The position numbers were made by a program, and so were the translations under genes. DNA of 32,000 bases from Microcystis aeruginosa NIES-2549 (GTDB taxonomy: Bacteria; Cyanobacteriota; Cyanobacteriia; Cyanobacteriales; Microcystaceae), in assembly GCF_000981785.2 (NCBI RefSeq), contig NZ_CP011304.1, positions 1,410,001 through 1,442,000 of the forward strand. The letters are read 5' to 3'. Numbering within the stretch: position 1 is the first letter of the stretch; every line of letters starts with the position of its first letter. The notes beneath the pieces were generated by a model. The model was not told the DNA's origin and did no database searches. It saw only the letters and a list, made by a program, of their open reading frames with translations. Below are positions 9,532 to 27,736 of this stretch, piece by piece.

Positions 9532-10515
9532 ATGAACCAAACAACCGCCAATTATGATGAACCCTGGAAAGAAGCATTAAGCGAGTATTTTGAAGCGTTT
9601 TTATACTTCTTTTTTCCCGAAGTTCACCAACTAATTGATTGGACAAAAACTCCCGAATCCCTAGAAAAAGAACTCAAACGGATTACCGCTTCAGCAAAGA
9701 CAAAAAAACGTTTTGCTGACAAACTTTATAAGGCTTGGCTACTTGAGGGACAAGAAGTCTGGATTTTGATTCATATTGAAATTCAAAGCCAGTACGAAGA
9801 AAATTTCCCTCAGAGGATGTATATTTATAACTATCGGGCCTTTGATTTGTATCAGAAACCGGTTATCAGTCTCGCTATATTAGGAGATGAACGAGTAAAT
9901 TGGCGACCAGATTCCTATAATTATACTATCGCTGGTTGTGAAGTCAGCCTCAAATTCCCAACGGTTAAATTACTGGACTATGAGGAAAACTGGTCAGAAC
10001 TAGAAACAAGTAGCAATCCCTTTGCTATAATAGTCATGGCACACCTGAAAACAAAAGCGACTACTGGGAAGCTGCCACAACGGGAACAGTGGAAGTGGAA
10101 GTTAATCAGGGGATTATATGAAAAGGAGTTCGAGAGAGAACAGATAATTAAACTGTTTGAAATCATCGACAATATGATGACTTTATCCACTGAATTGCAG
10201 TCAAGTTTAGAAAGTAAAATCAAACAATTTGAGGAGGAAAGAACCATGCCTTTAATGAGTAATATGGAGTTACGAGGAATCGAACGCGGTAAAGAAATTG
10301 GCAAGGAAATTGGCAAGGAAATTGGGGTGCTAGAAAAAAGCCGCGATGACATAAAAACAGTTTTAACTGTGCGGTTTGGAGAGATTTCTTCAGAAATTGA
10401 AGAGATAATCGGCAAAATGACTAACCCTACTATCTTAGAAGAGCTACTAAAATTAGCAGCTACCGCTAATTCTCTCGCAGAATTTCAGCAGTCTTTGGCT
10501 AAAATCAATATCTAG
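9532..10515 (+). CDS. Rpn-family (YhgA-like) PD-(D/E)xK recombination-promoting nuclease / putative transposase, tail type C1 (DUF4351-like)
   Basis: 327 aa. YDEPWKEALSEYFEAFLYFFFPEVH...FADKLYKAWL...VWILIHIEIQSQ is the typical cyanobacterial Rpn N-terminal nuclease core. The C-terminus RFGEISSEIEEIIGKMTNPTILEELLKLAATANSLAEF looks DUF4351-like. Confidence 0.8.
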   Translation: MNQTTANYDEPWKEALSEYFEAFLYFFFPEVHQLIDWTKTPESLEKELKRITASAKTKKRFADKLYKAWLLEGQEVWILIHIEIQSQYEENFPQRMYIYNYRAFDLYQKPVISLAILGDERVNWRPDSYNYTIAGCEVSLKFPTVKLLDYEENWSELETSSNPFAIIVMAHLKTKATTGKLPQREQWKWKLIRGLYEKEFEREQIIKLFEIIDNMMTLSTELQSSLESKIKQFEEERTMPLMSNMELRGIERGKEIGKEIGKEIGVLEKSRDDIKTVLTVRFGEISSEIEEIIGKMTNPTILEELLKLAATANSLAEFQQSLAKINI

Positions 10516-10542
10516 AAAACGGGTTTCTTTGAGAACCTATTT

Positions 10543-10575
10543 AGAAACCGGGTTTCTTCGAGAAACCCGGTTTCT
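10543..10575. terminator. perfect 15-bp-stem hairpin (AGAAACCGGGTTTCT tcg AGAAACCCGGTTTCT) between convergent genes; putative bidirectional terminator or dispersed hairpin repeat
   Basis: The arms are exact reverse complements. It lies between the Rpn stop (10515) and the vapC stop (10583). There is no flanking T-run, so a terminator function is only inferred. Confidence 0.4.
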
Positions 10576-10582
10576 GGACTTA

Positions 10583-10987
10583 TTAACGAATAAAATTAAT
10601 CTGACAAATATTAAGAGGAATAATCGGTTCAAATTCTTTTCGGTCAGAAGTAAGTAAAATTCCTTTTTCTTGATTGGCTAAAGTCAAAGCAAAACAATCA
10701 GCTAAAGAAATGCGCTTAATTAGTGCCTTATATTGGCTTACTTGTCGCCAAAACTTGCTACTTAAATCAAAGCGAGTTTTTATGTTAATATCACTTAATT
10801 CTTGAATTAGTTTTTCTGTTTCTGATTCTCCTATATCGCGATAAAAATTATAGTAAACTTCGCAAAGATTAACAACATGAATCATTTTGTTATTATTTTG
10901 ATTAGTGATGGTTTCTCTGACAAGATCCGCTCCTGTTTCATTACGAACAAAAGCAATTACAGCACAAGCATCTAAAATGATATTCAT
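10583..10987 (-). CDS. vapC: PIN-domain toxin VapC
   Basis: 134 aa with PIN acidic residues in the expected contexts (IILDACAVIA, NLCEVYY, SLADCFAL, LLTSDRKEF). ATGA start/stop overlap with the upstream antitoxin. Confidence 0.85.
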   Translation of the reverse strand: MNIILDACAVIAFVRNETGADLVRETITNQNNNKMIHVVNLCEVYYNFYRDIGESETEKLIQELSDINIKTRFDLSSKFWRQVSQYKALIKRISLADCFALTLANQEKGILLTSDRKEFEPIIPLNICQINFIR

Positions 10988-11244
10988 CTATTACGCTCCT
11001 CCCAATCAATTTCTGCTTGTTTTTGTTGGGCAAAATCTTCACTACTGGTGGGTGCATGAGCATATTTACCTTGTAATGATTTAATTAACTGTTGTCTTTC
11101 TTCTTCTGATTTAGGTTTAATTTGAGGCAAAAAATTTTGCTCGATTAACTCTCTAATTTGCAATAATTGTTCGCCAGAAAGATTAGCTAATGATTCAATT
11201 ATTTGTTGACGTATTGCTGTAGCATTCATGATTATTACTGACAA
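10984..11244 (-). CDS. putative VapB-type antitoxin
   Basis: 86 aa, small and acidic. It is translationally coupled to vapC by a 4-bp overlap (10984..10987). The family is not firmly recognised. Confidence 0.6.
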   Translation of the reverse strand: MSVIIMNATAIRQQIIESLANLSGEQLLQIRELIEQNFLPQIKPKSEEERQQLIKSLQGKYAHAPTSSEDFAQQKQAEIDWEERNR

Positions 11245-11499
11245 TTAAGTATAAAAAGTTACTATGGTTACAATCTATCACAAAAAATGCTAATTGGCCA
11301 GCAAACCTCTAAAATTAAGCAAATAACTGCCTCGCTTTGACGTTAGCGATCGCATCTTCGCAATAACTGAGAAAACGGGTTTCTTAGAAAACGGGTTTCT
11401 TTGAGAAACCCGTTTTCTGTTAATTTTTGTTATATCCCCCTTGAAAAATTCGGGATTCTTTGCACAAAATAGTCGAAGTCATCCTTTGCGGTCAATGTC

Positions 11500-11823
11500 A
11501 TGACTTCTACCCTGTTGCCGATTTTTCCTGCTGTTGACGATGTTTTGTTCAATTTTGCTCAATCTGATGGCTTGAGTCAAGCTAATCAGGTGAATAGTGT
11601 GAGAAATCAGCGTTTAACCGCTACCGTAGTTTTCCTCGATGCTGGTGTTAGCGATTATCAAAGTCTCCAAGCTGGGGTAATTCCAGAAGTCGCCACTGTT
11701 ATTCTCTCTCCCAACGAAGACGGAATCGAACAAATATCCGCTTTTTTACAACAAAATCCCCAGATTACCACCACCACCTCTATTATTAAATCGGTGCGTT
11801 ACGCTATCGCGCTTCACCCCTAA
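11500..11823 (+). pseudogene. truncated 5' fragment of a DUF4347-domain giant protein gene (duplicate copy)
   Basis: MTSTLLPIFPAVDDVLFNFAQSDG...VVFLDAGVSDYQSLQAGV parallels 14182... Homology is lost at about 11780, where unrelated sequence leads into the second Rpn gene. Confidence 0.7.
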
Positions 11824-11842: not shown

Positions 11843-12829
11843 ATGAACCAACCAACCGCCAATTATGATGAACCCTGGAAAGAAGCATTAAGCGAGTATT
11901 TTGAAGCGTTTTTATGCTTCTTTTTTCCCGAAGTTCACCAAGTAATTGATTGGACAAAAATTCCCGAATCCCTAGAAAAAGAACTGAAACGTATTACCGC
12001 TTCAGCTAAGACAAAAAAACGTTTCGCAGACAAACTCTATAAAGTTTGGTTACTCAGGGGTGAAGAAGTCTGGATTTTGATTCATATTGAAATTCAAAGC
12101 CAGTACGAAGAAAATTTCCCTCAGAGGATGTATATTTATAACTATCGGGCCTTTGATTTGTATCAGAAACCGGTTATCAGTCTCGCTATATTAGGAGATG
12201 AACGAGTAAATTGGCGACCAGATTCCTATAATTATACTATCGCTGGTTGTGAAGTCAGCCTCAAATTCCCAACGGTTAAATTACTGGACTATGAGGAAAA
12301 CTGGTCAGAACTAGAAACAAGTAGCAATCCCTTTGCTATAATAGTCATGGCACACCTGAAAACAAAAGCGACTACTGGGAAGCTGCCACAACGGGAACAG
12401 TGGAAGTGGAAGTTAATCAGGGGATTGTATGAAAAGGAGTTCGAGAGAGAACAGATAATTAAACTGTTTGAAATCATCGACAATATGATGACTTTATCCA
12501 CTGAATTGCAGTCAAGTTTAGAAAGTAAAATCAAACAATTTGAGGAGGAAAGAACCATGCCTTTAATGAGTAATATGGAGTTACGAGGAATCGAACGCGG
12601 TAAAGAAATTGGCAAGGAAATTGGCAAGGAAATTGGAGCGTTAGAAAATGCTCGTGATTTTGTGAAAAAAGTTTTGGAAAACCGACTAGGCGATATTCCT
12701 GGAGATATTGGACAATGTCTCAATGATGCTTCAGTTATTTCGGTTTTAGAAGAGATGTTAAAAGCCGCACTTATAGTAAATTCTTTTGAGGAGTGTAGGA
12801 AGTCTTTTAGTATCATCATAAATAAGTAG
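11843..12829 (+). CDS. Rpn-family PD-(D/E)xK nuclease / putative transposase, tail type C2
   Basis: 328 aa. The N-terminal ~265 aa are near-identical to the 9532 copy. The tail after the KEIG repeat is unrelated (ALENARDFVKKVLENRLGDIPGDIGQCLNDASVISVLEEMLKAALIVNSFEEC). Confidence 0.8.
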   Translation: MNQPTANYDEPWKEALSEYFEAFLCFFFPEVHQVIDWTKIPESLEKELKRITASAKTKKRFADKLYKVWLLRGEEVWILIHIEIQSQYEENFPQRMYIYNYRAFDLYQKPVISLAILGDERVNWRPDSYNYTIAGCEVSLKFPTVKLLDYEENWSELETSSNPFAIIVMAHLKTKATTGKLPQREQWKWKLIRGLYEKEFEREQIIKLFEIIDNMMTLSTELQSSLESKIKQFEEERTMPLMSNMELRGIERGKEIGKEIGKEIGALENARDFVKKVLENRLGDIPGDIGQCLNDASVISVLEEMLKAALIVNSFEECRKSFSIIINK

Positions 12830-13197
12830 TGTGGGTAATACCTACCTTACTTAGTAAACTGTTTGAAATCATCGACAATATGATGACTTTATCCCCTGAA
12901 TTACAGTCAAGTTTAGAGAGTAAAATCAAACAATTTGAGGAGGAAAGAACCATGCCTTTAATGAGTAATATGGAGTTACGAGGAATAGAACGCGGTAAGG
13001 AAATTGGAGCGTTAGAAAAAAGCCGCGATGACATAAAAACAGTTTTAACTGTGCGGTTTGGACAAATTTCTTCAGAAATTGAAGAGATAATCGGCAAAAT
13101 GACTAACTCGACTATCTTAGAAGAGCTACTAAAATTAGCAGCTACTGCTAATTCTCTCGCAGAATTTAAGCAGTCTTTGGCTAAAATCAATATCTAG
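12829..13197 (+). CDS. orphan Rpn C-terminal (C1-type, DUF4351-like) fragment; possibly a stand-alone small protein from ATG 12880
   Basis: Homologous to the last ~120 codons of the 9532 gene (KLFEIIDNMMTLSPELQ...LAEFKQSLAKINI). The frame is open, with in-frame ATG ATG at 12880..12885. It begins about 25 bp after the stop of the second Rpn gene. Confidence 0.55.
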   Translation: MWVIPTLLSKLFEIIDNMMTLSPELQSSLESKIKQFEEERTMPLMSNMELRGIERGKEIGALEKSRDDIKTVLTVRFGQISSEIEEIIGKMTNSTILEELLKLAATANSLAEFKQSLAKINI

Positions 13198-13224
13198 AAA
13201 ACGGGTTTCTTTGAGAACCTATTT

Positions 13225-13257
13225 AGAAACCGGGTTTCTTCGAGAAACCCGGTTTCT
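13225..13257. terminator. duplicate of the 15-bp-stem hairpin at 10543..10575
   Basis: Identical sequence at offset +2682, between the orphan Rpn tail and the second vapC. Confidence 0.4.
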
Positions 13258-13264
13258 GGACTTA

Positions 13265-13669
13265 TTAACGAATAAAATTAATCTGACAAATATTAAGAGG
13301 AATAATCGGTTCAAATTCTTTTCGGTCAGAAGTAAGTAAAATTCCTTTTTCTTGATTGGCTAAAGTCAAAGCAAAACAATCAGCTAAAGAAATGCGCTTA
13401 ATTAGTGCCTTATATTGGCTTACTTGTCGCCAAAACTTGCTACTTAAATCAAAGCGAGTTTTTATGTTAATATCACTTAATTCTTGAATTAGTTTTTCTG
13501 TTTCTGATTCTCCTATATCGCGATAAAAATTATAGTAAACTTCGCAAAGATTAACAACATGAATCATTTTGTTATTATTTTGATTAGTGATGGTTTCTCT
13601 GACAAGATCCGCTCCTGTTTCATTACGAACAAAAGCAATTACAGCACAAGCATCTAAAATGATATTCAT
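13265..13669 (-). CDS. vapC: PIN-domain toxin VapC (second copy, identical protein)
   Basis: Protein identical to 10583..10987. Confidence 0.85.
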   Translation of the reverse strand: MNIILDACAVIAFVRNETGADLVRETITNQNNNKMIHVVNLCEVYYNFYRDIGESETEKLIQELSDINIKTRFDLSSKFWRQVSQYKALIKRISLADCFALTLANQEKGILLTSDRKEFEPIIPLNICQINFIR

Positions 13670-13926
13670 CTATTACGCTCCTCCCAATCAATTTCTGCTT
13701 GTTTTTGTTGGGCAAAATCTTCACTACTGGTGGGTGCATGAGCATATTTACCTTGTAATGATTTAATTAACTGTTGTCTTTCTTCTTCTGATTTAGGTTT
13801 AATTTGAGGCAAAAAATTTTGCTCGATTAACTCTCTAATTTGCAATAATTGTTCGCCAGAAAGATTAGCTAATGATTCAATTATTTGTTGACGTATTGCT
13901 GTAGCATTCATGATTATTACTGACAA
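13666..13926 (-). CDS. putative VapB-type antitoxin (second copy, identical protein)
   Basis: Protein identical to 10984..11244, with the same 4-bp overlap with vapC. Confidence 0.6.
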   Translation of the reverse strand: MSVIIMNATAIRQQIIESLANLSGEQLLQIRELIEQNFLPQIKPKSEEERQQLIKSLQGKYAHAPTSSEDFAQQKQAEIDWEERNR

Positions 13927-14181
13927 TTAAGTATAAAAAGTTACTATGGTTACAATCTATCACAAAAAATGCTAATTGGCCAGCAAACCTCTAAAATTAA
14001 GCAAATAACTGCCTCGCTTTGACGTTAGCGATCGCATCTTCGCAATAACTGAGAAAATGGGTTTCTCCTTTAAGTAAGAAACCCGGTTTCTTGTATAAAT
14101 GTTAATTTTTGTTATATCCCCCTTGAAAAATTCGGGATTCTTTGCACAAAATAGTCGCATTAATCTTTTGCAGTCAGTGTC

Positions 14182-14601
14182 ATGACTTCTACCCTTTTGC
14201 CGAGCCTTTCTGCTGTTGACGATGTTTTGTTCAATTTTGCTCAATCTGATGGCTTTGTTCAAGCTAATCAGGTGGATAGTGCGAGAAATCAGCGTTTAAC
14301 CGCTACCGTAGTTTTCCTCGATGCTGGTGTTAGCGATTATCAAAGTCTCCAAGCTGGAGTAATTTCAGAAGTCGCCACCGTTATTCTCACTCCCAATCAA
14401 GACGGAATCGAACAAATATCCGCTTTTTTACAACGAAATCCCCAGATTACCACCATTCACCTGGTTTCCCATGGTGCGCCGGGATGCTTATATTTAGGGA
14501 ATTGTCAACTTAATTTAACAAATATTTACGATTATCGCCAACAGTTACAGAATTGGGCGAAGATTAATCATATTCTACGGCGTTGTCAAATTGAAAGATG
14601 A
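14182..14601 (+). pseudogene. DUF4347-domain N-terminal fragment of the giant exoprotein gene
   Basis: VVFLDAGVSDYQSLQAGV...IHLVSHGAPGCLYLGNCQLNL is the DUF4347 core. The frame terminates at 14601, inside a small inverted-repeat element, where the domain would normally continue. Confidence 0.7.
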
Positions 14602-14679
14602 TCAGAATCAGCTGGGAACTGAAATCACTTTGATAGCAAGGATTGCATTGCATCTTTCATATTCTGATCTGACAACGCC
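14579..14679. repeat. ~101-bp inverted-repeat (MITE-like?) element at the break in the DUF4347 gene
   Basis: Terminal IR GGCGTTGTCA (14579..14588) pairs with TGACAACGCC (14670..14679). It extends to GATCAGAAT/ATTCTGATC if an 11-nt indel is allowed. Confidence 0.3.
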
Positions 14680-14766
14680 AATCCTTATGAACTCTGAGAT
14701 TGATATTCTCAATCTTAATTGAGATGACTATATTTGTCTTGTAGCAAGGTTTAATACGTTTCTGCC

Positions 14767-16455
14767 ATGGATACCTACTCCCCCGCCTTACGCTCTGCTG
14801 TTGCTGATGTTCTCCAATCCCTAGGGGATTTTGCCGCTGATCCTCTCTTTGCGGAAAAGTTTAAGCTAGTTTTTGGCACGGAGATTACGCCACGACGGTT
14901 CCGTGCGTTAACGTCCCCCGGAAATCTGCCGGAAGTTGAAATCCTAGCGGATGGGATTTTAGACGGCGCGGTAGGGGCTTTTTCGGCCCAGACAGGCAAG
15001 ATCTATCTGTCGGAGTCGGTGGTTAATGGGGATGCGGGGCGCTTGCGGGCGGTGTTGTTAGAGGAGATTGGGCATTATTTGGATTTGGTGGTTAACGCTC
15101 AGGATACAACCGGGGATGAGGGTGAGTTGTTTTCGGCGCTGGTGCGGGGTGTTGAGATTGGCAGTGGGGAATTGCGTCGCCTACAGACAGAGGATGATTG
15201 GGCGGTCATTACCATTGATGAGCAGTTGGTCGCAGTAGAGCAGGCGACAACTAATCTGGGTTTAAGGCAAGGATATGGCTATCGAGATGATTCCGTCACG
15301 ACATCAGACTCCGGCGATATCTGGATTTTTTCGACCACCGGTCAGGGAAATAGTAATCATTACGTCCAAGTGTCCTCTACCGCAACGAACGTTGATCTGG
15401 TACTAGACCTTTATAATCACTCTACCGGCCAGCTTTTAGTTCGCGCAGACGATTATGGCTCAAATTATAATTTAGAGGGCATTTCCCTTGCAGATCTTCC
15501 TGCTGGAACCTATTCTGCTGTTGTTTATAACTATTACGGTGCTAACATTGGTTGGCCAGGCTCGGCTGGCTACCGACTAGAGATTAATGCGCCCCAGTCG
15601 GATTTGTGGCCTGTACCGTTGGAGTTGATTATTTCCACGACGCCGGGGAACTCGACCCAAGCCACCCAGATCACCTCGACTAATACTCTCTATATCGACG
15701 GCGCTTGGCAGAATATCGGCAGTGGCAGTACGGTATCGGGCTTTTGGAGCCGTTTACTTCTGAATGGAACCCAGATTGCTTCTTGGAATAACCTTGCGTT
15801 TAGCGCTGGCGACTTTGACTACTTCACCGACTTCGCTCTTGGCCCTCTAGCACCGGGCAACTATACCCTGACCTTACAGGTTGACTCTACCAATGCGGTT
15901 TTTGAGAGTGACGAGTCGAATAACACATATTCTCGCACGTTTACAGTCACAGCACCGAGTATTCCTCAAGATGGATACGAATCCAATAACACCCTCGCGA
16001 CGGCAAGAAATCTCGGAACCCTGAGCGGATTAAGCGCCCTGCAAAATCTGACCATTCACAGTTCTACAGATACCGACTTTTTCCGCTTTACCACGGCGGG
16101 AACCTCCACCGATGAACACTATATCGCCGCTTTCTTTAATGGCGCTCAGGGGATTATTGATCTTAATTTCTTTGACAGCGCCGGTAACTTTCTGTTCTAT
16201 GCTCTGGGAGAAGGGTCTGGCTACAACTATGTTCCCCTAGGCGGTTTACCGGCGGGGACCTACGTTGTCCAGTTGGGGAGTTATGCTGGGCAGACCAGTC
16301 CTGGTTATTTACTGGAATTTAATCTGCCAGTGGCTTTTACGACTACAGGTGATCGCCTAGAAACCAGTGGCAATTCTAATAGACCTCTCCATAATTTAAT
16401 TAAATCACAATATATAGGATATAATAAAACAAATAGTAACTCAAAAAAGCCATGA
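14767..16455 (+). CDS. 5' portion of the giant exoprotein (conserved EEIGH module, 2 PPC domains, CARDB domain), truncated by IS insertion at 16380/16381
   Basis: AVLLEEIGHYLD...TGDEGELFSALV is the module that commonly follows DUF4347. The CARDB-like region (about 15607..15952) carries ESDESNNT. PPC motifs are present (TDTDFFRFTTAG...GTYVVQL). The last 25 codons are IS-encoded. Confidence 0.8.
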   Translation: MDTYSPALRSAVADVLQSLGDFAADPLFAEKFKLVFGTEITPRRFRALTSPGNLPEVEILADGILDGAVGAFSAQTGKIYLSESVVNGDAGRLRAVLLEEIGHYLDLVVNAQDTTGDEGELFSALVRGVEIGSGELRRLQTEDDWAVITIDEQLVAVEQATTNLGLRQGYGYRDDSVTTSDSGDIWIFSTTGQGNSNHYVQVSSTATNVDLVLDLYNHSTGQLLVRADDYGSNYNLEGISLADLPAGTYSAVVYNYYGANIGWPGSAGYRLEINAPQSDLWPVPLELIISTTPGNSTQATQITSTNTLYIDGAWQNIGSGSTVSGFWSRLLLNGTQIASWNNLAFSAGDFDYFTDFALGPLAPGNYTLTLQVDSTNAVFESDESNNTYSRTFTVTAPSIPQDGYESNNTLATARNLGTLSGLSALQNLTIHSSTDTDFFRFTTAGTSTDEHYIAAFFNGAQGIIDLNFFDSAGNFLFYALGEGSGYNYVPLGGLPAGTYVVQLGSYAGQTSPGYLLEFNLPVAFTTTGDRLETSGNSNRPLHNLIKSQYIGYNKTNSNSKKP

Positions 16456-17526
16456 AAAACTACACTTGGGAATACATTCAAAAATATCCGAAACAAACTA
16501 AAAGACTATTAGGAATTGACTACCAACAACTAGAACAACTGATGGCACTTGGAAAACTTATACATCGGAAAAACCAATCAGAAATCGAAAAAACCAAAAT
16601 TAGGATTAATCAACCAGGAAGCGGAACACCTCCTAAATTATCAGAAGAGGAACAAATTGTTCTAATGTTGGTTTATTTAAGACATCATCTAAGCTTTCAA
16701 ATCTTAGGACTAATATTTCAAGTGAGTGAATCAACGGCTCATAATATCTTTACCTATTGGCAAAAACTTTTTGAAGGAGAGTTACCGCCAAGTTTGTTAG
16801 AACAAATAAAGAAGTGCCAAGAAGAGGAAATAATAATTGAACAATTAAGGGATTATGAGTTGATTGTCGATAGCGCAGAACAGCCCGTGGAGAGGCCGAC
16901 CGATTATCAAGAACAAAAAATATATTATTCGGGAAAGCAAAAAAGACATACTTTAAAAAGTCAATTTATTGTCTTGCCAAAAGCTGAAGATATTGTTGAT
17001 GTAGTTATTGGTCAACCTGGTCCGACGAGCGACATAAAAATCTGTCGGCAAACTTTAAGCAAATTCGATTCTCAACAAACTTTTATTGGAGATAAAGCTT
17101 ACCTAGGAGAAAATCAAATCAGAACTCCTGATAAAAAACCTAAGAATGGAGAATTAACCGAGAATCAAATTAAAGAAAATAAAGTTTTATCATCTCGGCG
17201 AATTTTTGTTGAGCATTTAATTCGAGTTGTCAAAGTATTTAAAGTAGTTCAAGAAAGATTTAGATTAAATAAAAGTCGATATAAATCGGTTTTACTGACC
17301 GTTTGTGGCTTAGTAAGGTTGAGAATTAGTGCGCTAATTTTAGAAGTAATAGAAGGGGAGCAATCAGGGGAAGTAATTGACGTTATAATTAGCCATAGTT
17401 TTCCGTCAAAATTGGATTTTGTCTCTTCAAACCCTGATTAATCGGTTTTGAGAGCTAATTTTGACTCTTGGTCTAATCTGCCTCTCTTCCTTGCTGTGAC
17501 TGACTTATAAATTTTTGGAGAGGTCT
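16381..17526 (+). mobile_element. 1146-bp insertion sequence of the IS5/PIF-Harbinger-like (DDE_Tnp_4) type
   Basis: Terminal IRs AGACCTCTCC (16381..16390) and GGAGAGGTCT (17517..17526), with about 17 of 22 positions matching when extended. Flanking AAT duplication at 16378..16380 and 17527..17529. One transposase ORF inside. Confidence 0.85.
16452..17441 (+). CDS. IS transposase (N-terminal HTH plus DDE_Tnp_4 catalytic domain)
   Basis: 329 aa. Candidate DDE residues lie in LIVDSAEQPVERP, FIGDKAYLG and RIFVEHLIRVVK. The YSGKQKRHTLK block is typical of this family. Confidence 0.85.
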   Translation: MKNYTWEYIQKYPKQTKRLLGIDYQQLEQLMALGKLIHRKNQSEIEKTKIRINQPGSGTPPKLSEEEQIVLMLVYLRHHLSFQILGLIFQVSESTAHNIFTYWQKLFEGELPPSLLEQIKKCQEEEIIIEQLRDYELIVDSAEQPVERPTDYQEQKIYYSGKQKRHTLKSQFIVLPKAEDIVDVVIGQPGPTSDIKICRQTLSKFDSQQTFIGDKAYLGENQIRTPDKKPKNGELTENQIKENKVLSSRRIFVEHLIRVVKVFKVVQERFRLNKSRYKSVLLTVCGLVRLRISALILEVIEGEQSGEVIDVIISHSFPSKLDFVSSNPD

Positions 17527-20500
17527 AATAATTTTGGAACAACGCCAACGTCCTTGGGAACCGTTGCGGGCTTTAAGCGGGAAAATGATCTGTCTATCCA
17601 TACCCCCACGGATCAGGATTGGTTTTCTTTTACGATTACAGGGCAGACTAACAATAATCATTACATCGCCATTGATTTTAATAACACCCAGGGGAATTTA
17701 GATTTAGCCCTCTATGATAACCAAGGTCGTCTGATTACCTACGAGGCCAATAACACCGACGGGGAGTATATATCCCTCTGGGGACTGCCCCAAGGTACCT
17801 ACCGAGCGGCGGTTTACAGTTGGCTTGGGCAAACGAATGAATATGATTTAATTATCAACGCGCCCGGAACGACTTCGGGGATTCAGAGCGACAGCTTTGA
17901 AAGCAATAACACCCGAAGCGCCGCTAAGGCCTTAAAGAATTTTGGTTGGAGTTCTGAGAGCGGCTACAAAGAGTGGAATAATCTTTCCATCCACACGGCC
18001 AGCGATGAGGATTGGTTTAGTTTTGACCTCAAGCAAACCGGTGTCGAGGGGCATTTTGTCGGCATTGCGCTGGATAATATCCAAGGGGATTTGGATATTG
18101 AGCTTTACAACAGCGCCGGTAACAAAATTGGGGAATCCAAGGGAACCCGTAATTTTGAGTCTATCAGTCTAGCGGGCCGGGGAACGGGTACTTATTTTGT
18201 GCGGGTGTTAGGTTTTAATAGTGCCGTCAATCCCAATTATTCCCTAGTCGTCAATACCCCTGGGGATGATATTTTTGAAGCCAATAATACGCGGGCAGTG
18301 GCGAAGGATTTAAGCAATCTCCGCACGTCTCCCCTCAAAACCTGGCAAAATCTGTCTATTACCGCCGGTGATAATGATTGGTTTAAGTTCAATTTACCGA
18401 GTCGGGGAACGGCTAATGATTTTGTCAGCGTTACCTTCGATCACAGTTTGGGGGATGTTGACCTAGAGCTTTATAACAGTAGCGGTACCCGTATCCTCAG
18501 TTCGGCAGGAACGTCTAATAGCGAGCGTATTTCCCTGGAGGGGCAGACTAGCGGCGATTACTTTGTGCGGGTGTTGGGTTATAACAACGCCACTAACCCC
18601 AACTACGACCTCACCATTAGCGCACCTTTAGCCAACGGGGCGGATAGCTTTGAGTCGAATAATAGTTTTTCGACGGCCTATAACCTGAATAATCAAATTG
18701 CGCCCTCCCAACAGGGGCGGCAGGTGGTCACCTTGGGGACTGATCCCGAGGAGTTTCTCTCGATTCACAACGGTAGTGATGTGGATTGGTTTAAGTTCAC
18801 GATCGCCGGCGCCGGTCAGCAGGGACATTATGCGGCCATTAGTTTTGACCACACCCTGGGGGATCTAGATCTACAGCTTTACAATAGCTCTAACACCCTA
18901 CTCAAAACCTCGGAGGGGGTCGCCAACGCCCATTCGGTGGACTTAAAGGGATTGAGTGCCGGGACTTATTATTTGCGGGTTTATGGTCACAATGGGGAGG
19001 TCAATCCGAGCTATACCTTGACAGTGGACGCGCCCTTTGCTGGGGTAACGGCGGACTGGGGGGAAGGCTCCGATAATAACAACGCGATCAGTCGGGCGAC
19101 CAACTTGGGCAAGCTTGACCGTCAGTTTAATCGGGACAATTTATCGATTACCGCCAACGACACGGACTGGTTCCGCTTCGAGATTGACGCTAAGGGCGGG
19201 GTATCTGACGCGGCGGGTATTACTTTCAACCACCAGCAGGGGGATTTGGACATTGAGCTTTACGCTTCTGATGGGACGACCCTTCTGGATTCTTCCCAGG
19301 GAGTAGGGAACACGGAGAGCATTTCCCTCAATGGCCGCAACGCGGAGGTCTATTTCCTCAAGGTCTATGGCTATGGCGGGGCGACAAATTCAGAATATAG
19401 TGTGGCCATCAGCGCCCCGGTGAATGCGGCGGGGGATTGGGCGGATCGGCTGGCGGCCAATAACACGGCGGCGACGGCGCGGGATCTGAGGACGGTGCAG
19501 GGTTTACAAACGTGGGAGCCGTTCTCGATTCACACGGCGACGGATGTGGATTGGTTTAAGTTCACGACTTTGGCGACGGCCAGCGCCACGGATTATCTAC
19601 AAATTGACTTTGACCATACCCTGGGGGATTTGGAGCTTGAGCTTTACGCTGCCAATGGCACGACTCTGTTAGGCAAGTCGGAAACCACCAATAATTTTGA
19701 GCGCTTGAATTTGGTTAACACCAGTAATCAACCCCTAGGGGCGGGAACTTATCTGGTGAAGGTGACGGGTTATAACGGCGCGATTAATCCCAGTTATCAG
19801 CTTTCCCTCAACGCGCCCGATCCTAGTGTCAGTAAGGCGGATTGGGCGGAGGCGAATAATACCCGCGCCACGGCGACGGATCTTCAGACAATTGACGGGT
19901 CTCGTCTGTTTTCGGGGCTATCCATCCATCAGGGCGGCGATGAGGATTGGTTTAAGTTTACGACCATTGGTACGGGTCTTGCGGGTCAGGAGGTGAGCAT
20001 CGCCTTCGATCACCAGTTGGGGAATCTTCAGTTGCAACTCTACCGGGAAGGTCAATCCACGCCGGTGTTAACCTCTGACACCCAGGGCGATCGGGAGTCG
20101 GTGTCTTTGGCTGGGTTAGCGGCGGGAACCTATGTGGTGCGGGTTTACGGGGCCACCGGTTCGGTGACGAATCCGGAGTATTCCCTCTCGATCAACGCGC
20201 CCCAAACCCCGGAGGCGGATTGGCTGGATAAGCGTAGTCAGCCGAACAATACCCTAACGCTGGCCTATGATCTGCGGAATATTGACGGTAGTGTGGCCCT
20301 CAGCGGCCTCTCGATTCACACCACGACGGATGAGGATTGGTTTAAGGTACAGGTCAAGCAACGCACCGCCGCTAATCAGTTTGTCAACCTTGATTTTAAT
20401 CACCAAGAGGGGGATCTGCGCCTCGAACTCTTTAACGCATCGGGGACTAAATTAAGGGAGTCCAATACCGATAAAAACTCGGAGCAGGTTTCCCTTGCGA

Positions 20501-23500
20501 ACCTCGACCCCGGCGCTTACTACGTCAAAGTGTCCGGCGCCGTCAATCCCAACTACAGCCTCACGGTGCAGGGGATTCCTGACTTGGTAGCCGACGCTTT
20601 GGAAGGCGCGACCAATGGCCCGAAGGATGCTTATCAGTTGCGGGATTTGGCGGTTAGCGGTGGGAAAAACCTATTTCCAACCCCTACATACACCTATACG
20701 AGTCCCTACACCGGTAGGACGCAAACTTTTTATAGCGAAGCAGCTTGGACTGCCGCAATGATTACAGATAGAGATTATCACGAAGGATTATCCCGAAATC
20801 AAAAACGAGTAGAACAAAGACGGACATCCTCCGTACAAGCTTCTCCCCAAAGTAGCCGTACACCCCAACAAAGCTCTTCCCCCCGAACGGTAACACTTTC
20901 CCGCGATGAAGTGGGGATACTCGTTCAACTGGCCAGCCGAACTAATAATCCTCGTGCTTCTATACTTAGGTGGCTAAATATAGAGTCTCTGAATCAAATA
21001 AAAATAAAATCTTTAGGACAAAATCTAACAAGCATCCCCGATCTTTCCATCGACACCGCCACTGATCAAGACTGGTTCAGATTCACATTATCGGGTCAAG
21101 GGCAAGACGGACAATATGTCGGTTTAAACTTCGATAACTCTTTAGGAAACTTACAACTCGAACTCTTTGAAGTCTTTAACACCGACACCAATACCACCGA
21201 GAGCCAATACCGAACCTTCCTAGTCGATCGCACTGGGGGCAACAGTGGCAATCAACAGATCAACCTCGCCGGATTAGCCAAAGGGGATTACCTAGTACGA
21301 GTCAGTGGCGTTAACGGTGCGACCAACCCGAACTATAACGTGGTCTTTAACGCTCCCCCTGTTCTAGACACCGCCGGGGATTGGACAGAAGCCACCACCG
21401 ACAACACCGCCAGCAAACCCTACGACCTCAAAACCGTCGAAGGCGTAACCTCCCTCAGCGCCCTCTCCATCCACACCGCCAGCGATCGAGACTGGTTCCA
21501 ATTCAAAACCACCAGCGTCGGCAAAGCCGGTCATAACCTCCGCATCGACTTCAACCACGCCCTCGGCGACCTCGATCTCGTCCTCTATAACCAAGACGGC
21601 ACCACTGTGCAGGGACGATCCGAAACCACCGAAAACTACGAAGAAATTAGCCTCGACGGCCTCGCCGCCGGTACTTATCAAGTCCAAGTCCTCGGCTACC
21701 AAAACGCCACCAACCCCAACTACACCCTCACCCTCAGCGCCCCCAACGGCACTCAAACCCCCATCCTCTCCGACTACCTCGAAACCAACAACAGCGCCGC
21801 CACCGCCACCGACCTCGATCGCATCAGTAACCTCCGTAGTATCCCTGGACTCACCATCCATCAAGGAGACAACGACTGGTTTAAATTCACCACCACCCAA
21901 ACCAGCACCGCCGCCAACTTCCTCAGCGTCGAATTTGAACACGCCCAGGGCGACCTACAACTAGAACTCTATCGGGCCAGCAACCTGACCACCCCCTACA
22001 AAACCGCCAACCTCTCCAGCGCCACCAATAACCGAGAAACCCTTTCCCTCGCCGGAGAAATCGCCGGCACCTACTACGCGCGGGTCATCGGCAACAGCAA
22101 CGCCACCAACAACTACCAGTTCTACATCGACGCGCCCACCAACGCCGCCAACACCAAAAACGAATGGACGATCTTCGTCTATATGACCGGCAGTGACCTC
22201 GCTGAATCCGCCTTCAACGACATCAACGAGATGGAACTGGCCGCCGCCTCCCTGCCCAGTAACGTCAAAATCGCCGTCTTCTGGGATCAAACCGCCAACC
22301 GACCCTACGCCACCGCCAATCAAACCGCTTGGGGAACCGCCGGCTGGGCCATTCTCCAACCCGACACCGATTTAGAGCGCGTCGCCACCCCCTTCACCCT
22401 CCTAGACGAGAAAAACTCCGGCGATCCCGCTACCCTGACGGAATTTATCAACCTCGCCAAATCCGCCGCCCCGGCCAATAACTACGGACTGATCCTGTGG
22501 AACCACGGCAACGGCGAACTCGGAGGCTTTAACGTCGATAACGAAGGCACCTCCGCCAATACCGGTGCCGATCGCCTCTACAGTACCGAACTCGACACCG
22601 CCCTCCAAAACGTCAAAAACGCCGATCCCAGCTTCTCCCTCAAACTGTTGGCTTTTGATGCCTGTTTAATGGCTATGGCGGAAGTTGCCTATATGGTACG
22701 CAACCACGCCGAAATTTTTGTCGCCTCTCAGGAAGCCGCCGAAGACACCGGCTACGACTACACCACCGCCTTCGCCGCCCTGATCAATAACCCCGGCGAA
22801 GTCAAAGCCATCGATCTGGCCAATAGCCTCATCGCCAGCTACCAACAACAACACCAAGGCGACCGTCGGGGTTGGGATACCCTCTCCGCCACCAGCACCT
22901 CTGCCCTCAACACCCTCGTCACCAGCGTCAAAACCTTTACCGACGCCGCCGTCGCCCTCACCAGTAATGCCACTTGGGACGCGATCAAAGATGCCCGCGA
23001 TTTCGCCAACAGCTTCTACCCCGCCCCCTACTACCGGGATTTAGGTCAGTTCCTCCAAGCCGTCGCCACCAGCGCCAACAGCAATCTTCCCGCCAATCTC
23101 AAAACCGCCGCCAATAACGCCCTCACCGCCCTGCGTAACCTAGTGGTGGATAAAACCGCCGACCAACGCAACGTTCAGGGTCTCTCGGTCTATTTTCCCG
23201 ACAGCGGGGCGATCGATGCCGGTTACCTCGGCCGCAACTCGCAATTCCTCAACGCCACCGGCTGGACAAATTTCCTCAACGCCTTTACCACCCGCGGCAG
23301 TAGCACCCGCAACCCCCTCCTACAGGATTGGGCCGAAGGCAACGACGTGGCCGCCCGCGCCTTTAACCTCAACACCTTAACCGGTAGCGGCCATCGCTTT
23401 ACGAACCTCAGCCTTCCCAACGCCGCCGATCAAGACTATTACCGCTTTAACCTTTCCCAAGCCGGTGCCACCAGCAACACCCTCACTGTTTCCTTCACCC

Positions 23501-26956: not shown

Positions 26957-27736
26957 TTAACCCTGAAATATATGATAGCGATGATAGTTTAAAAAATCCA
27001 AATCTGGTGAAAAGCGAGCGGGAACATTTAAAGTTTTACCGCGATAGTTGATAAAATTTAGTGCTAACGTCTCGCTACCTTGATCCTGAGCCTTTTTTTC
27101 GATCTCATGGCCAATAATTAATCTTAAATCCTCATCGAAACTAATTAAACCTCGATCGAAAGCAGTATCATGAGTACGAGCTAGGCACAGGCCATTATGA
27201 GGGTTTAAACGCTGTTCGGGAAATTGACTCCAGGGTAATATATGACTAGCTGTTAGTAACAGAGGAATGGGATTTCCTGTAATACAGCAACGATAGTTAT
27301 ATAGGGCTAAAATTGTCTTTCTAAAAAAGTTTTGTCCGATTCTAACTTTTCTGATTGCCTCGTTTTCTGTTTTGATATTTTCCGAAAAATCAAGTCTAGT
27401 AAAATCCTCTTGCTGTTCGTTGATAACTCCTAAAAGAACTTGTAATTTTTCCTCACTTTCTAGGGCTAATTCTGTCCAGTTATCCTCGAACTCCTGCCAG
27501 ATTTGTCGATCAGCTTTACTGATACCTTTTAACCCCTGTACTCCTCGCAATTGATGCCTGGGATCGAGAGAACCAAAATTACATAATTTCATCACCAGGG
27601 CCGATGGTGTTCGCTGTAACTTTTGAGCGACTTCGATAATAACAGGATTATTGGTGTGGAATTGTCCATAGGGAAATTTATAGTATAAATTGAGAGCGAT
27701 CAGCAGCTCATCCCTTGTCCATAAATTCTTAGTCAT
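26957..27736 (-). CDS. HNH endonuclease (COG3183-like predicted restriction endonuclease)
   Basis: 259 aa. The C-terminal region reads CCITGNPIPLLLTASHILPWSQFPEQRLNPHNGLCLARTHDTAFDRGLISFDEDL (HNH_2-type). The N-terminal W.RDELLIALNLYYK module is typical of this group. Confidence 0.75.
   Translation of the reverse strand: MTKNLWTRDELLIALNLYYKFPYGQFHTNNPVIIEVAQKLQRTPSALVMKLCNFGSLDPRHQLRGVQGLKGISKADRQIWQEFEDNWTELALESEEKLQVLLGVINEQQEDFTRLDFSENIKTENEAIRKVRIGQNFFRKTILALYNYRCCITGNPIPLLLTASHILPWSQFPEQRLNPHNGLCLARTHDTAFDRGLISFDEDLRLIIGHEIEKKAQDQGSETLALNFINYRGKTLNVPARFSPDLDFLNYHRYHIFQG

Follow-up and report, generated by a model that had tools for sequence, protein, structure and literature searches.

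The window analysed here, 32,000 nucleotides (nt) of Microcystis aeruginosa NIES-2549 (contig NZ_CP011304.1, positions 1,410,001 to 1,442,000), carries two paralogous genes, Rpn1 and Rpn2, which appear to form a divergent branch of the Rpn/YhgA-like family. Directly behind Rpn2 lies an open copy of the 3' part of such a gene, here called the orphan, whose tail is of the type found in Rpn1 (C1) and not of the type found in the gene immediately upstream (C2). The likeliest reading is that the orphan is a displaced, ypaA-like antitoxin module of the RpnS type, heterologous to Rpn2. Our confidence is high in the anatomy of the locus and its evolutionary reading, moderate in an Rpn-type toxin-antitoxin mechanism for Rpn1 and Rpn2, and low in any specific role of the orphan.

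In Escherichia coli the long product of an rpn gene acts as a toxic DNA endonuclease, and its variable C-terminal domain, RpnS, is also made by itself, by translation from an internal start that has a separate ribosome-binding site (RBS), and serves as the cognate antitoxin (Zhong et al. 2023, PMC10400941), as the first-pass annotation of this DNA had correctly stated. A helix of RpnS bears four-residue repeats, which begin 8-20 residues after the initiating Met and vary in number between strains; adding one repeat to RpnC_S or RpnC_L alone abolishes neutralisation (PMC10400941). These "antitoxin within toxin" systems were characterised only in 2023, in E. coli and a few other bacteria only, and Zhong et al. 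themselves raise the question of what makes the hypervariable tails diversify.

Anatomy of Rpn1, Rpn2 and the orphan

Rpn1 and Rpn2 (Table 1) share a core that is almost the same in both. Positions 9765-10325 and 12076-12636 differ by one mismatch in 561 nt (at 10116/12427), against 18 differing positions in the initial 233 nt, in agreement with the near-identical cores and substitution-rich start described in the first-pass annotation. The DNA upstream of the two ATGs is unrelated (78 of 100 positions mismatched), and past three KEIG repeats the genes diverge again into their C1 and C2 tails. The best protein matches of the window come from M. aeruginosa and M. flos-aquae and are 92-95% identical.

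The open copy of the C1 tail that had been claimed about 25 base pairs past the stop of the C2-type gene is indeed there. Its frame is open from a GTG at 12829 or from 12856 to the stop at 13197 and re-encodes the gene from KLFEIIDNMM on. The first part of the orphan (12855-13007) forms a direct repeat with 12460-12612 inside Rpn2 and resembles 10149-10301 of Rpn1 just as closely (148/153 nt each, 97%), which bears out the repeat noted earlier and sets its length at 153 nt, far above chance expectation. The tail that follows (12994-13197) agrees with that of Rpn1 (10312-10515) at 194 of 204 nt (95%). Neither the repeat nor the junction is an assembly artefact, since the junction recurs in independent assemblies, complete genomes among them.

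The two tails had been called unrelated, but they are not. C1 and C2 align without a gap, with 54% nt identity and 35% amino acid (aa) identity (22/62), and in an alignment of 32 family members they occupy the same 62-63 columns and have conserved positions in common (L278 and R281 of a VL..R[LF]G motif, L302 and an NS..EF end). Judged from this family alignment, C1 and C2 are alternative, colinear versions of one DUF4351-like domain, which settles the question, posed in the first-pass annotation itself, of whether they fill the same domain slot. The supposedly chimeric junction of the orphan is not confirmed either. GGAGCGTTAGAAAAAAGCCGCGATG occurs also in full-length C1 genes (L014; homologous loci carry L numbers here), GGGGTGCTAG, the variant seen in Rpn1, recurs in the orphans of L007 and L008, and the orphan tail start, GGAGCGTTAGAAAA followed by AAGCCGCGATG, is found in full-length C1 genes of other strains; a chimera is thereby ruled out in favour of an ordinary C1 allele shared with full-length C1 genes. 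Tail mosaics exist elsewhere among the homologues, C3 beginning C2-like and finishing C1-like.

Recurrence and spread of the junction

Taking the C2 stop, the 25-nt spacer and AAACTGTTTGAAATC as the junction, we found it nearly identical at 13 genome-derived places, the window included. The other 12 lie in six further Microcystis assemblies, namely M. ichthyoblabe FBCC-A1114 (three loci), M. aeruginosa LEGE 91341 (four loci), Microcystis sp. M015S2, BLCC-F210, GCA_977017055 and one ENA assembly, and the junction stands at 25 places in 24 JGI metagenome contigs. It follows every C2 tail in the genome-derived loci, and where metagenome contigs reach far enough upstream C2 is found there too, save in L082, which retains no more than the last ~20 nt of C2. 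Stranded behind it are C1, a C1 variant, C3, C4 or C2 tails, each orphan tail keeping the 3' context of its own type; behind a C4 orphan, for instance, the next array gene follows 30 nt on, as it does behind other C4 tails. Synonymous diversity (pS) is 0.018 among C2 tails vs 0.08-0.11 among C1 tails, and the low C2 value fits a recent spread. A single origin of the junction, followed by spread, would be the simplest reading.

The recombination across the repeat that the first-pass annotation predicted is seen as a polymorphism between strains. The DUF4915-adjacent locus, with the same 5' flank, holds a plain C1 gene (Rpn1) in the window and a C2 gene with a C1 orphan (KEIG x1) in L007, and tandem C2 units, the reciprocal product of such an exchange, are present in L021 and L089 in the arrangement core-mid-C2-mid-C2-mid-Cx. 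The recombinant would be a C1-type gene as foreseen, but not "exactly" Rpn1, from which it would differ by 10 tail substitutions and possibly in repeat number (x1 vs x3). The 5' flank of Rpn2, a truncated DUF4347 fragment, is common to L003, L007, L008 and L051, with differing gene contents. With a copy of the conserved repeated segment ("mid") on either side, the C2 unit would be copyable into any paralogue by ordinary homologous recombination. The tail mosaics and orphan tails that were to be sought in related genomes are found across loci and strains.

A larger block, overlooked earlier, opens with the orphan; it is a segmental tandem duplication in which 10149-11773 is colinear with 12855-14455. 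The block contains the tail, a PIN/VapC-type gene pair on the opposite strand and a DUF4347 gene start of 274 nt. Over 860 nt of it, 10516-11375 equals 13198-14057 with 0 mismatches, the flanks of this tract are 93-97% identical, and the DUF4347 homology of 11500-11823 to 14182-14455 stops at about 11773. As identical and diverged tracts alternate within the block, the mosaic suggests recent, repeated gene conversion between paralogous copies.

Several further observations were made on the copies themselves. Head-to-tail arrays of up to three full genes and an orphan occur at L004 5973-9418 and L009 7217-10426, with constant 24-nt spacers past the C4 tails (TAGTCTCAGTAAYTTTCTTCTCCA ATG). In a recurrent nuclease-less variant, core residues 67-156, which hold the D...ExQ motif, are swapped for a frame-breaking TCAGTTA-like repeat of ~40 nt; such copies lie at L007 11899-12642, L009 7217-7970 and L010 8997-9770 and in L042, L049, L051, L053, L063, L064 and L066, and the RpnS-like (S) part is open in 10 of 11 of them. 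What looked like a partial copy in Anabaenopsis (L038) is a run of masked N and no orphan. L025, a 686-nt contig assigned to Nocardioides allogilvus, holds a Microcystis-type gene fragment at 90-95% identity and is probably contamination of an actinobacterial assembly.

Family, internal start and the standing of the orphan

Searched with a family profile, 1.84 billion representatives yielded 8795 clusters at 50% identity, of which most window-like members are annotated "hypothetical". Rpn1 itself reaches E 0.011 with PF04754 and E 5e-4 with TIGR01784, and 17 of 32 close relatives reach E<=0.05, none reported better than 8e-4. With a profile of 102 diverse relatives, hhalign against E. coli RpnA/B/C/E gave E 3e-5 and a probability of 73% over 242 colinear columns (residues 21-298). 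Significance was reached only with this profile, the alignments of shallow family profiles with RpnE alone or with the four E. coli Rpn proteins not being significant. At E<=1e-3, 11 of the 102 relatives match PF04754 (best 3.6e-7) and 17 match PF14261, that is DUF4351 (best 2.9e-15). None of them departs from D63, H81 or R95, E83 and Q85 are nearly invariant, and the D63...E83-I-Q85-S of the family aligns with the invariant D63...E82-H-Q84-S of E. coli; the structural model places strands-helix-strand around the D63/E83/Q85 motif.

The tail was approached through a neighbouring Microcystis protein (L010:6970-7947), which hhalign aligns with the family end to end (98.2%, E 2.8e-14) and which has a genuine DUF4351 domain (E 5e-20) for a tail, with GIEQ/GIER repeats at the same place. 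PF14261 gives E 0.16 for the orphan and no match for the C2 tail in the window, and E 4.7e-4 across the whole model for the relative P0118. The orphan model, with a predicted local distance difference test score (pLDDT) of 78.6, consists of one long helix (30-60), on which the repeat lies, followed by three short ones; the RpnAS crystal structure is a compact helical bundle with a long first helix. The profile and motif comparisons lend moderate support to placing Rpn1 and Rpn2 in the Rpn/YhgA-like family, as a divergent branch that carries DUF4351-type tails. A second Rpn-like family, ~23% identical, with GIEQ/GIER repeats and a genuine DUF4351 tail (L010 6970-7950), was seen directly upstream of copies in L006, L012-L015, L018, L020-L022 and L042.

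An internal start is suggested by GAGGAGG, a signal in the sequence only, 8 nt ahead of the M239 ATG at 10246, 12557 and 12952. This Shine-Dalgarno (SD) motif is kept in 78 of 80 units from Microcystis, Calothrix, Tolypothrix, Cronbergia, Geminocystis and others, although GAA makes up 75% of the Glu codons in these genes. The closer family keeps E234, E235, M239 and P240 without exception, the repeats start 15 residues past M239, within the range reported for RpnS (PMC10400941), and in the profile alignment the E. coli initiating Met falls 3 residues from M239. The in-frame ATGATG (M214-M215) that the first-pass annotation had singled out does stand at equivalent positions (10174, 12485 and 12880), but its role as internal start is probably wrong; the M239 ATG, with its conserved SD, is probably the better candidate. 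Both candidate starts lie within the orphan and would give products of 105 aa (ATG 12880) or 81 aa (ATG 12952). The GTG at 12829, which overlaps the Rpn2 stop (TAGTG) and was considered as a coupled start, is GGG in L008 and so not conserved. Among homologues the number of KEIG units runs from 1 to 8, some copies having an extra ELRGIERG duplication. An independent downstream partial copy in a Calothrix metagenome-assembled genome (L030 4526-4780) starts at the equivalent of the M239 SD and ATG, with a heterologous tail and an in-frame TAA.

We propose that the Rpn family of "gene-within-a-gene" toxin-antitoxin systems may have a cyanobacterial branch, to which Rpn1 and Rpn2 belong. The toxin would be the conserved N-terminal PD-(D/E)XK-like nuclease, and the 3' part, from the internal SD and M239 ATG to the stop, would encode a small RpnS-like antitoxin or oligomerisation module, built of a four-residue repeat, which varies in number, followed by a DUF4351-like tail. 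A 3' cassette (the C2 tail and a 25-nt foreign flank) would once have recombined into such a gene, the left crossover being homologous and the right join illegitimate, just upstream of KLFEII, so that the resident S module was stranded downstream with its own SD and ATG. From its place between two "mid" copies the C2 unit could spread to paralogous loci by homologous recombination or gene conversion, each transfer stranding the local tail; unequal exchange between the "mid" copies would duplicate or delete the unit, and its deletion would re-fuse the nuclease core to the stranded tail. The orphan of the window would be one stranded module, co-oriented with Rpn2 and probably co-transcribed with it, and may yield an RpnSs-like protein of 81 aa (or 105 aa). 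The sequences themselves show the anatomy, the homology, the one conserved junction with its spread across loci and strains, and the presence/absence polymorphism; toxicity, internal translation, expression and orphan activity we infer, and the mechanism as a whole, an Rpn-type gene-within-gene system with spread of the C2 cassette and stranded S modules, we judge to be probable. It is a good deal less likely, and in our view improbable, that the C2 unit (tail, 25-nt flank and "mid") is a self-spreading 3' replacement cassette that travels by gene conversion among the paralogous Rpn-like loci of Microcystis, re-arms each core with a new antitoxin specificity and in every case leaves the old antitoxin behind as a free-standing, translated gene. 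If this were true, the cell would gather "unpartnered" antitoxins while each full-length paralogue kept a unique tail/repeat code, and an intragenic toxin-antitoxin family would have a built-in means of diversifying and insulating itself with no lethal intermediate.

A number of results weigh against an Rpn-type antitoxin module, and they concern both the family and the orphan. Rpn1 and Rpn2 score below the family cut-offs (PF04754, 15.7 and 17.1 bits against 21 bits; TIGR01784, 19.9 and 21.4 bits against 52.1 bits). A profile search of PDB sequences returned chance matches only and no Rpn structure, and Foldseek searches of the PDB with the full-length and orphan models gave nothing significant, the top matches of the full-length model (pLDDT 82) being restriction-type nucleases at E 0.25, a result that neither backs nor contradicts the family. 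Constraint on the orphan is not strict: of 33 complete orphans, 24 are intact (73%), which disposes of the possibility, raised earlier, that they are degraded in all relatives; 5 are truncated and 4 have altered last residues, vs 0 of 26 full-length genes with a broken tail. Scans of the window, uninformative on the whole, found no sigma-70-like promoter site just upstream of the orphan; they also found no terminator-like site between the Rpn2 stop and the orphan, a point in favour of function. The ratio of nonsynonymous to synonymous differences (pN/pS) is 0.59 in orphans vs 0.62 in in-gene tails for the C1 tail, and 0.21 vs 0.26 for "mid". Because sequence passes between orphans and in-gene tails, the ratio has no discriminating power here, and gene conversion from functional genes could yield equal values as easily as selection.

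The repeat numbers point the same way. The orphan has C1 with KEIG x1 and Rpn1 has C1 with KEIG x3, so that if the E. coli rule of one repeat holds the orphan would not neutralise Rpn1, and the earlier idea that it provides immunity for the C1-type copy is doubtful. Eight full-length genes were counted in the complete genome of M. ichthyoblabe FBCC-A1114 (L003, L004, L008, L010, L011, L022), all with different tail/repeat combinations, and 0 of its 5 S-only modules match any of them, in an inventory made by peptide-pattern scanning that may be incomplete. Nor does an S-only module match a resident full-length gene in the other genomes, save for the C2 unit that L021 holds in duplicate. As the repeat number of the orphan matches no resident full-length gene, a partner toxin cannot be named. 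The unique tail/repeat strings of the FBCC-A1114 paralogues give the impression that these genes are kept insulated from each other.

Much of this would suit an orphan that is a non-functional relic of one recombination accident, hitchhiking with the C2 gene, neither expressed nor selected, and intact in appearance only through its youth and gene conversion from functional paralogues. The broken orphans, the lack of a resident full-length gene with the same tail type and repeat number, the lack of a promoter-like site of its own and the shared pN/pS, as if variation were imported by conversion, all favour such a relic, as does the call of E. coli ypaA (L080 5817-6002) as a pseudogene in RefSeq. 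We nevertheless regard it as unlikely, although deserving serious weight. The intact orphans are spread across strains whose C1 tails differ at pS ~0.1, SD and ATG are kept in all orphans, and the nuclease-less copies have lost residues 67-156 and keep the S part open in all but one case. The YpaA product was detected by Zhong et al. despite the pseudogene annotation, which cautions against dismissing such orphans on annotation alone.

The orphans and nuclease-less copies might instead be silent cassettes for tail switching, in the manner of pilS or Rhs orphans and perhaps promoted by the Rpn nuclease; Zhong et al. have speculated that RpnL may initiate such recombination (PMC10400941). The existence of at least four tail types with many repeat numbers, the array of three full genes and an orphan in L004, orthologous loci in different states, the tandem expansion in L021 and L089 and the mosaic C3 tail are all compatible with switching. 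High-frequency switching within a strain is without evidence, deletion of C2 is one-way unless C2 is re-imported, and the variation lies between strains, where ordinary recombination over evolutionary time explains it, and for these reasons we find the idea very doubtful. Least credible, to the point of being nearly dismissible, is that the genes are transposase-like mobile elements, with transposition behind the duplicates and partial copies as its products and scars. The database annotation "putative transposase", the several copies per genome in different contexts and a homology that is sharp from the ATG speak for it; against it, terminal inverted repeats and target duplications are missing, the homology is bounded by the coding sequence itself, copies sit in head-to-tail arrays with spacers of about 30 nt, and Zhong et al. 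found no evidence for autonomous transposition of rpn genes (PMC10400941).

Microcystis offers a natural series of intermediate states, in which one junction has been copied to several loci, four tail types stranded, tandem and deleted forms produced and nuclease-less copies and unique tail/repeat combinations kept, so that the recombination route to new specificities becomes directly testable. It also draws attention to a large, poorly annotated gene family which, in a cyanobacterium that forms blooms, probably serves as toxin-antitoxin systems or in defence. The finding extends known biology and introduces no new principle.

Surroundings of the genes and comparison with known systems

The features of the locus are collected in Table 1. 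A 33-nt palindromic element, AGAAACCGGGTTTCTTCGAGAAACCCGGTTTCT, brackets each PIN pair (10541-10576, 11384-11419, 13223-13258 and about 14050-14084) and also adjoins C1 tails directly on their 3' side; a REP/MITE-like repeat of Microcystis and a bidirectional terminator are both possible identities for it. Further downstream, the open reading frames (ORFs) at 14182-14601 (DUF4347), 14767-16455 and 17515-26427 (2970 aa) resemble pieces of one giant repetitive-protein gene, split within 14182-26427 by a DDE transposase gene at 16452-17441 (DDE_Tnp_4, E 2e-29). On the minus strand, 26957-27736 encodes an HNH-type restriction-endonuclease-like protein (PADLOC HNH model, E 9e-93); PADLOC gave no match for the Rpn-like or PIN genes.

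Table 1. Coordinates of the genes, repeats and neighbouring features in the window
Feature	Position	Strand	Basis or remark
Rpn1, Rpn/YhgA-like gene, 327 aa, C1-type tail, KEIG x3	9532-10515	+	ORF; PF04754 and TIGR01784 below cut-off
Rpn2, Rpn/YhgA-like gene, 328 aa, C2-type tail, KEIG x3	11843-12829	+	ORF; base-by-base comparison
C1 tail of Rpn1, 62 aa and stop, DUF4351-like	10327-10515	+	Alignment, hhalign
C2 tail of Rpn2	12638-12829	+	ORF
KEIG x3 four-residue (12-nt) repeats	Rpn1 10291-10326; Rpn2 12602-12637	+
Single KEIG unit of the orphan	12997-13008	+
Left copy of the 153-nt direct repeat (KLFEIIDNMM...ELRGIERG), within Rpn2	12460-12612	+
25-nt spacer at the C2/orphan junction	12830-12854	+	Near-identical at 13 genome-derived and 25 metagenome places
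Orphan S module: right repeat copy (12855-13007), KEIG x1, C1 tail, stop	12855-13197	+
Candidate internal RBS GAGGAGG and M239 ATG, Rpn1	10231-10248 (GAGGAGG 10231-10237, ATG 10246-10248)	+
Equivalent GAGGAGG and ATG sites	Rpn2 12542-12559; orphan 12937-12954	+
PIN-domain (VapC-like) gene	10583-10987	-	PF01850 E 5e-12
86-aa partner, upstream of the PIN gene	10984-11244	-	Pair spans 10583-11244
Second, identical PIN pair	13265-13926
Truncated DUF4347 N-fragment, 5' flank ("U2") of Rpn2	11500-11823	+	PF14252 E 1e-10
Remainder of the duplicated block, with the second PIN pair and the 5' end of a DUF4347 gene	13198-14455		Colinear with 10516-11773; no mismatch in the first 860 nt, about 93% identity past them

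With the Rpn family (PF04754/COG5464) the window genes have in common an N-terminal D...ExQ core, a helical linker, an internal SD and Met, variable repeats and a helical C-terminal domain, and both are multi-copy and arrayed in genomes. They differ in that the window proteins score below the family cut-offs and repeat KEIG where RpnC repeats KGIE. To the DUF4351 (PF14261) proteins the likeness lies in the position of the tail, which aligns with the domain of L010:6970-7947, although the window tails fall below threshold.

Polymorphic toxin loci of the Rhs/CdiA type, to which the first-pass annotation compared the locus, provide a parallel for the geometry of recombination only, in that an incoming 3' cassette displaces the resident end, which is kept downstream with a conserved stretch for recombination. 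The parallel does not extend to the variable tail as toxin. In Rhs/CdiA it is the variable C-terminus that acts as toxin, and orphans each come with an immunity gene of their own, whereas in the window the variable part is a putative antitoxin or oligomerisation domain and the nuclease motif, hence the probable toxin, lies in the conserved N-terminus. The window also has no evident secretion or delivery context and no immunity gene paired with a tail, the next genes being the opposite-strand PIN pair.

The closest counterpart is found in E. coli itself. RpnS exists there also as a separate gene, annotated as DUF4351 in some species, and stand-alone copies (rpnSs) include ypaA, just downstream of rpnE, and another downstream of rpnC; such copies group with the S part of the gene just upstream of them and can be lost by deletion or by fusion of an rpn N-domain with the downstream copy; rpn arrays arise by tandem duplication and not by transposition (PMC10400941). 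In the K-12 locus ypaA starts at a duplicated AAGGAGAGATTAATG, 12 nt past the rpnE stop, and has one four-residue unit more than the in-gene copy of rpnE.

In both species, then, a small same-strand ORF lies shortly past the stop of an rpn gene (12 nt in K-12, 25 nt in the window), repeats the 3' part of such a gene including the internal RBS and start, and differs from the other copy in the number of four-residue repeats, and the E. coli fusion of N-domain and downstream copy is the recombination predicted in the first-pass annotation. The E. coli copy comes from local duplication, whereas the C1 tail in the window is displaced and heterologous to Rpn2, being 35% identical in aa to the C2 tail upstream and 95% identical to the tail of a paralogue. 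In the window the copy begins 32 codons upstream of its likely start, not at the SD, and the family is too divergent for Pfam/NCBIfam thresholds. One Microcystis junction, moreover, has been propagated to several loci per genome with four types of stranded tail.

Our literature searches returned nothing on cyanobacterial Rpn orphans, but the earlier statement that such exchange had not been described was too strong, as downstream rpnSs, loss by fusion and arrays are all reported in PMC10400941. What is new is the cyanobacterial version with a heterologous tail; in other respects the locus is a variant of the E. coli arrangement.

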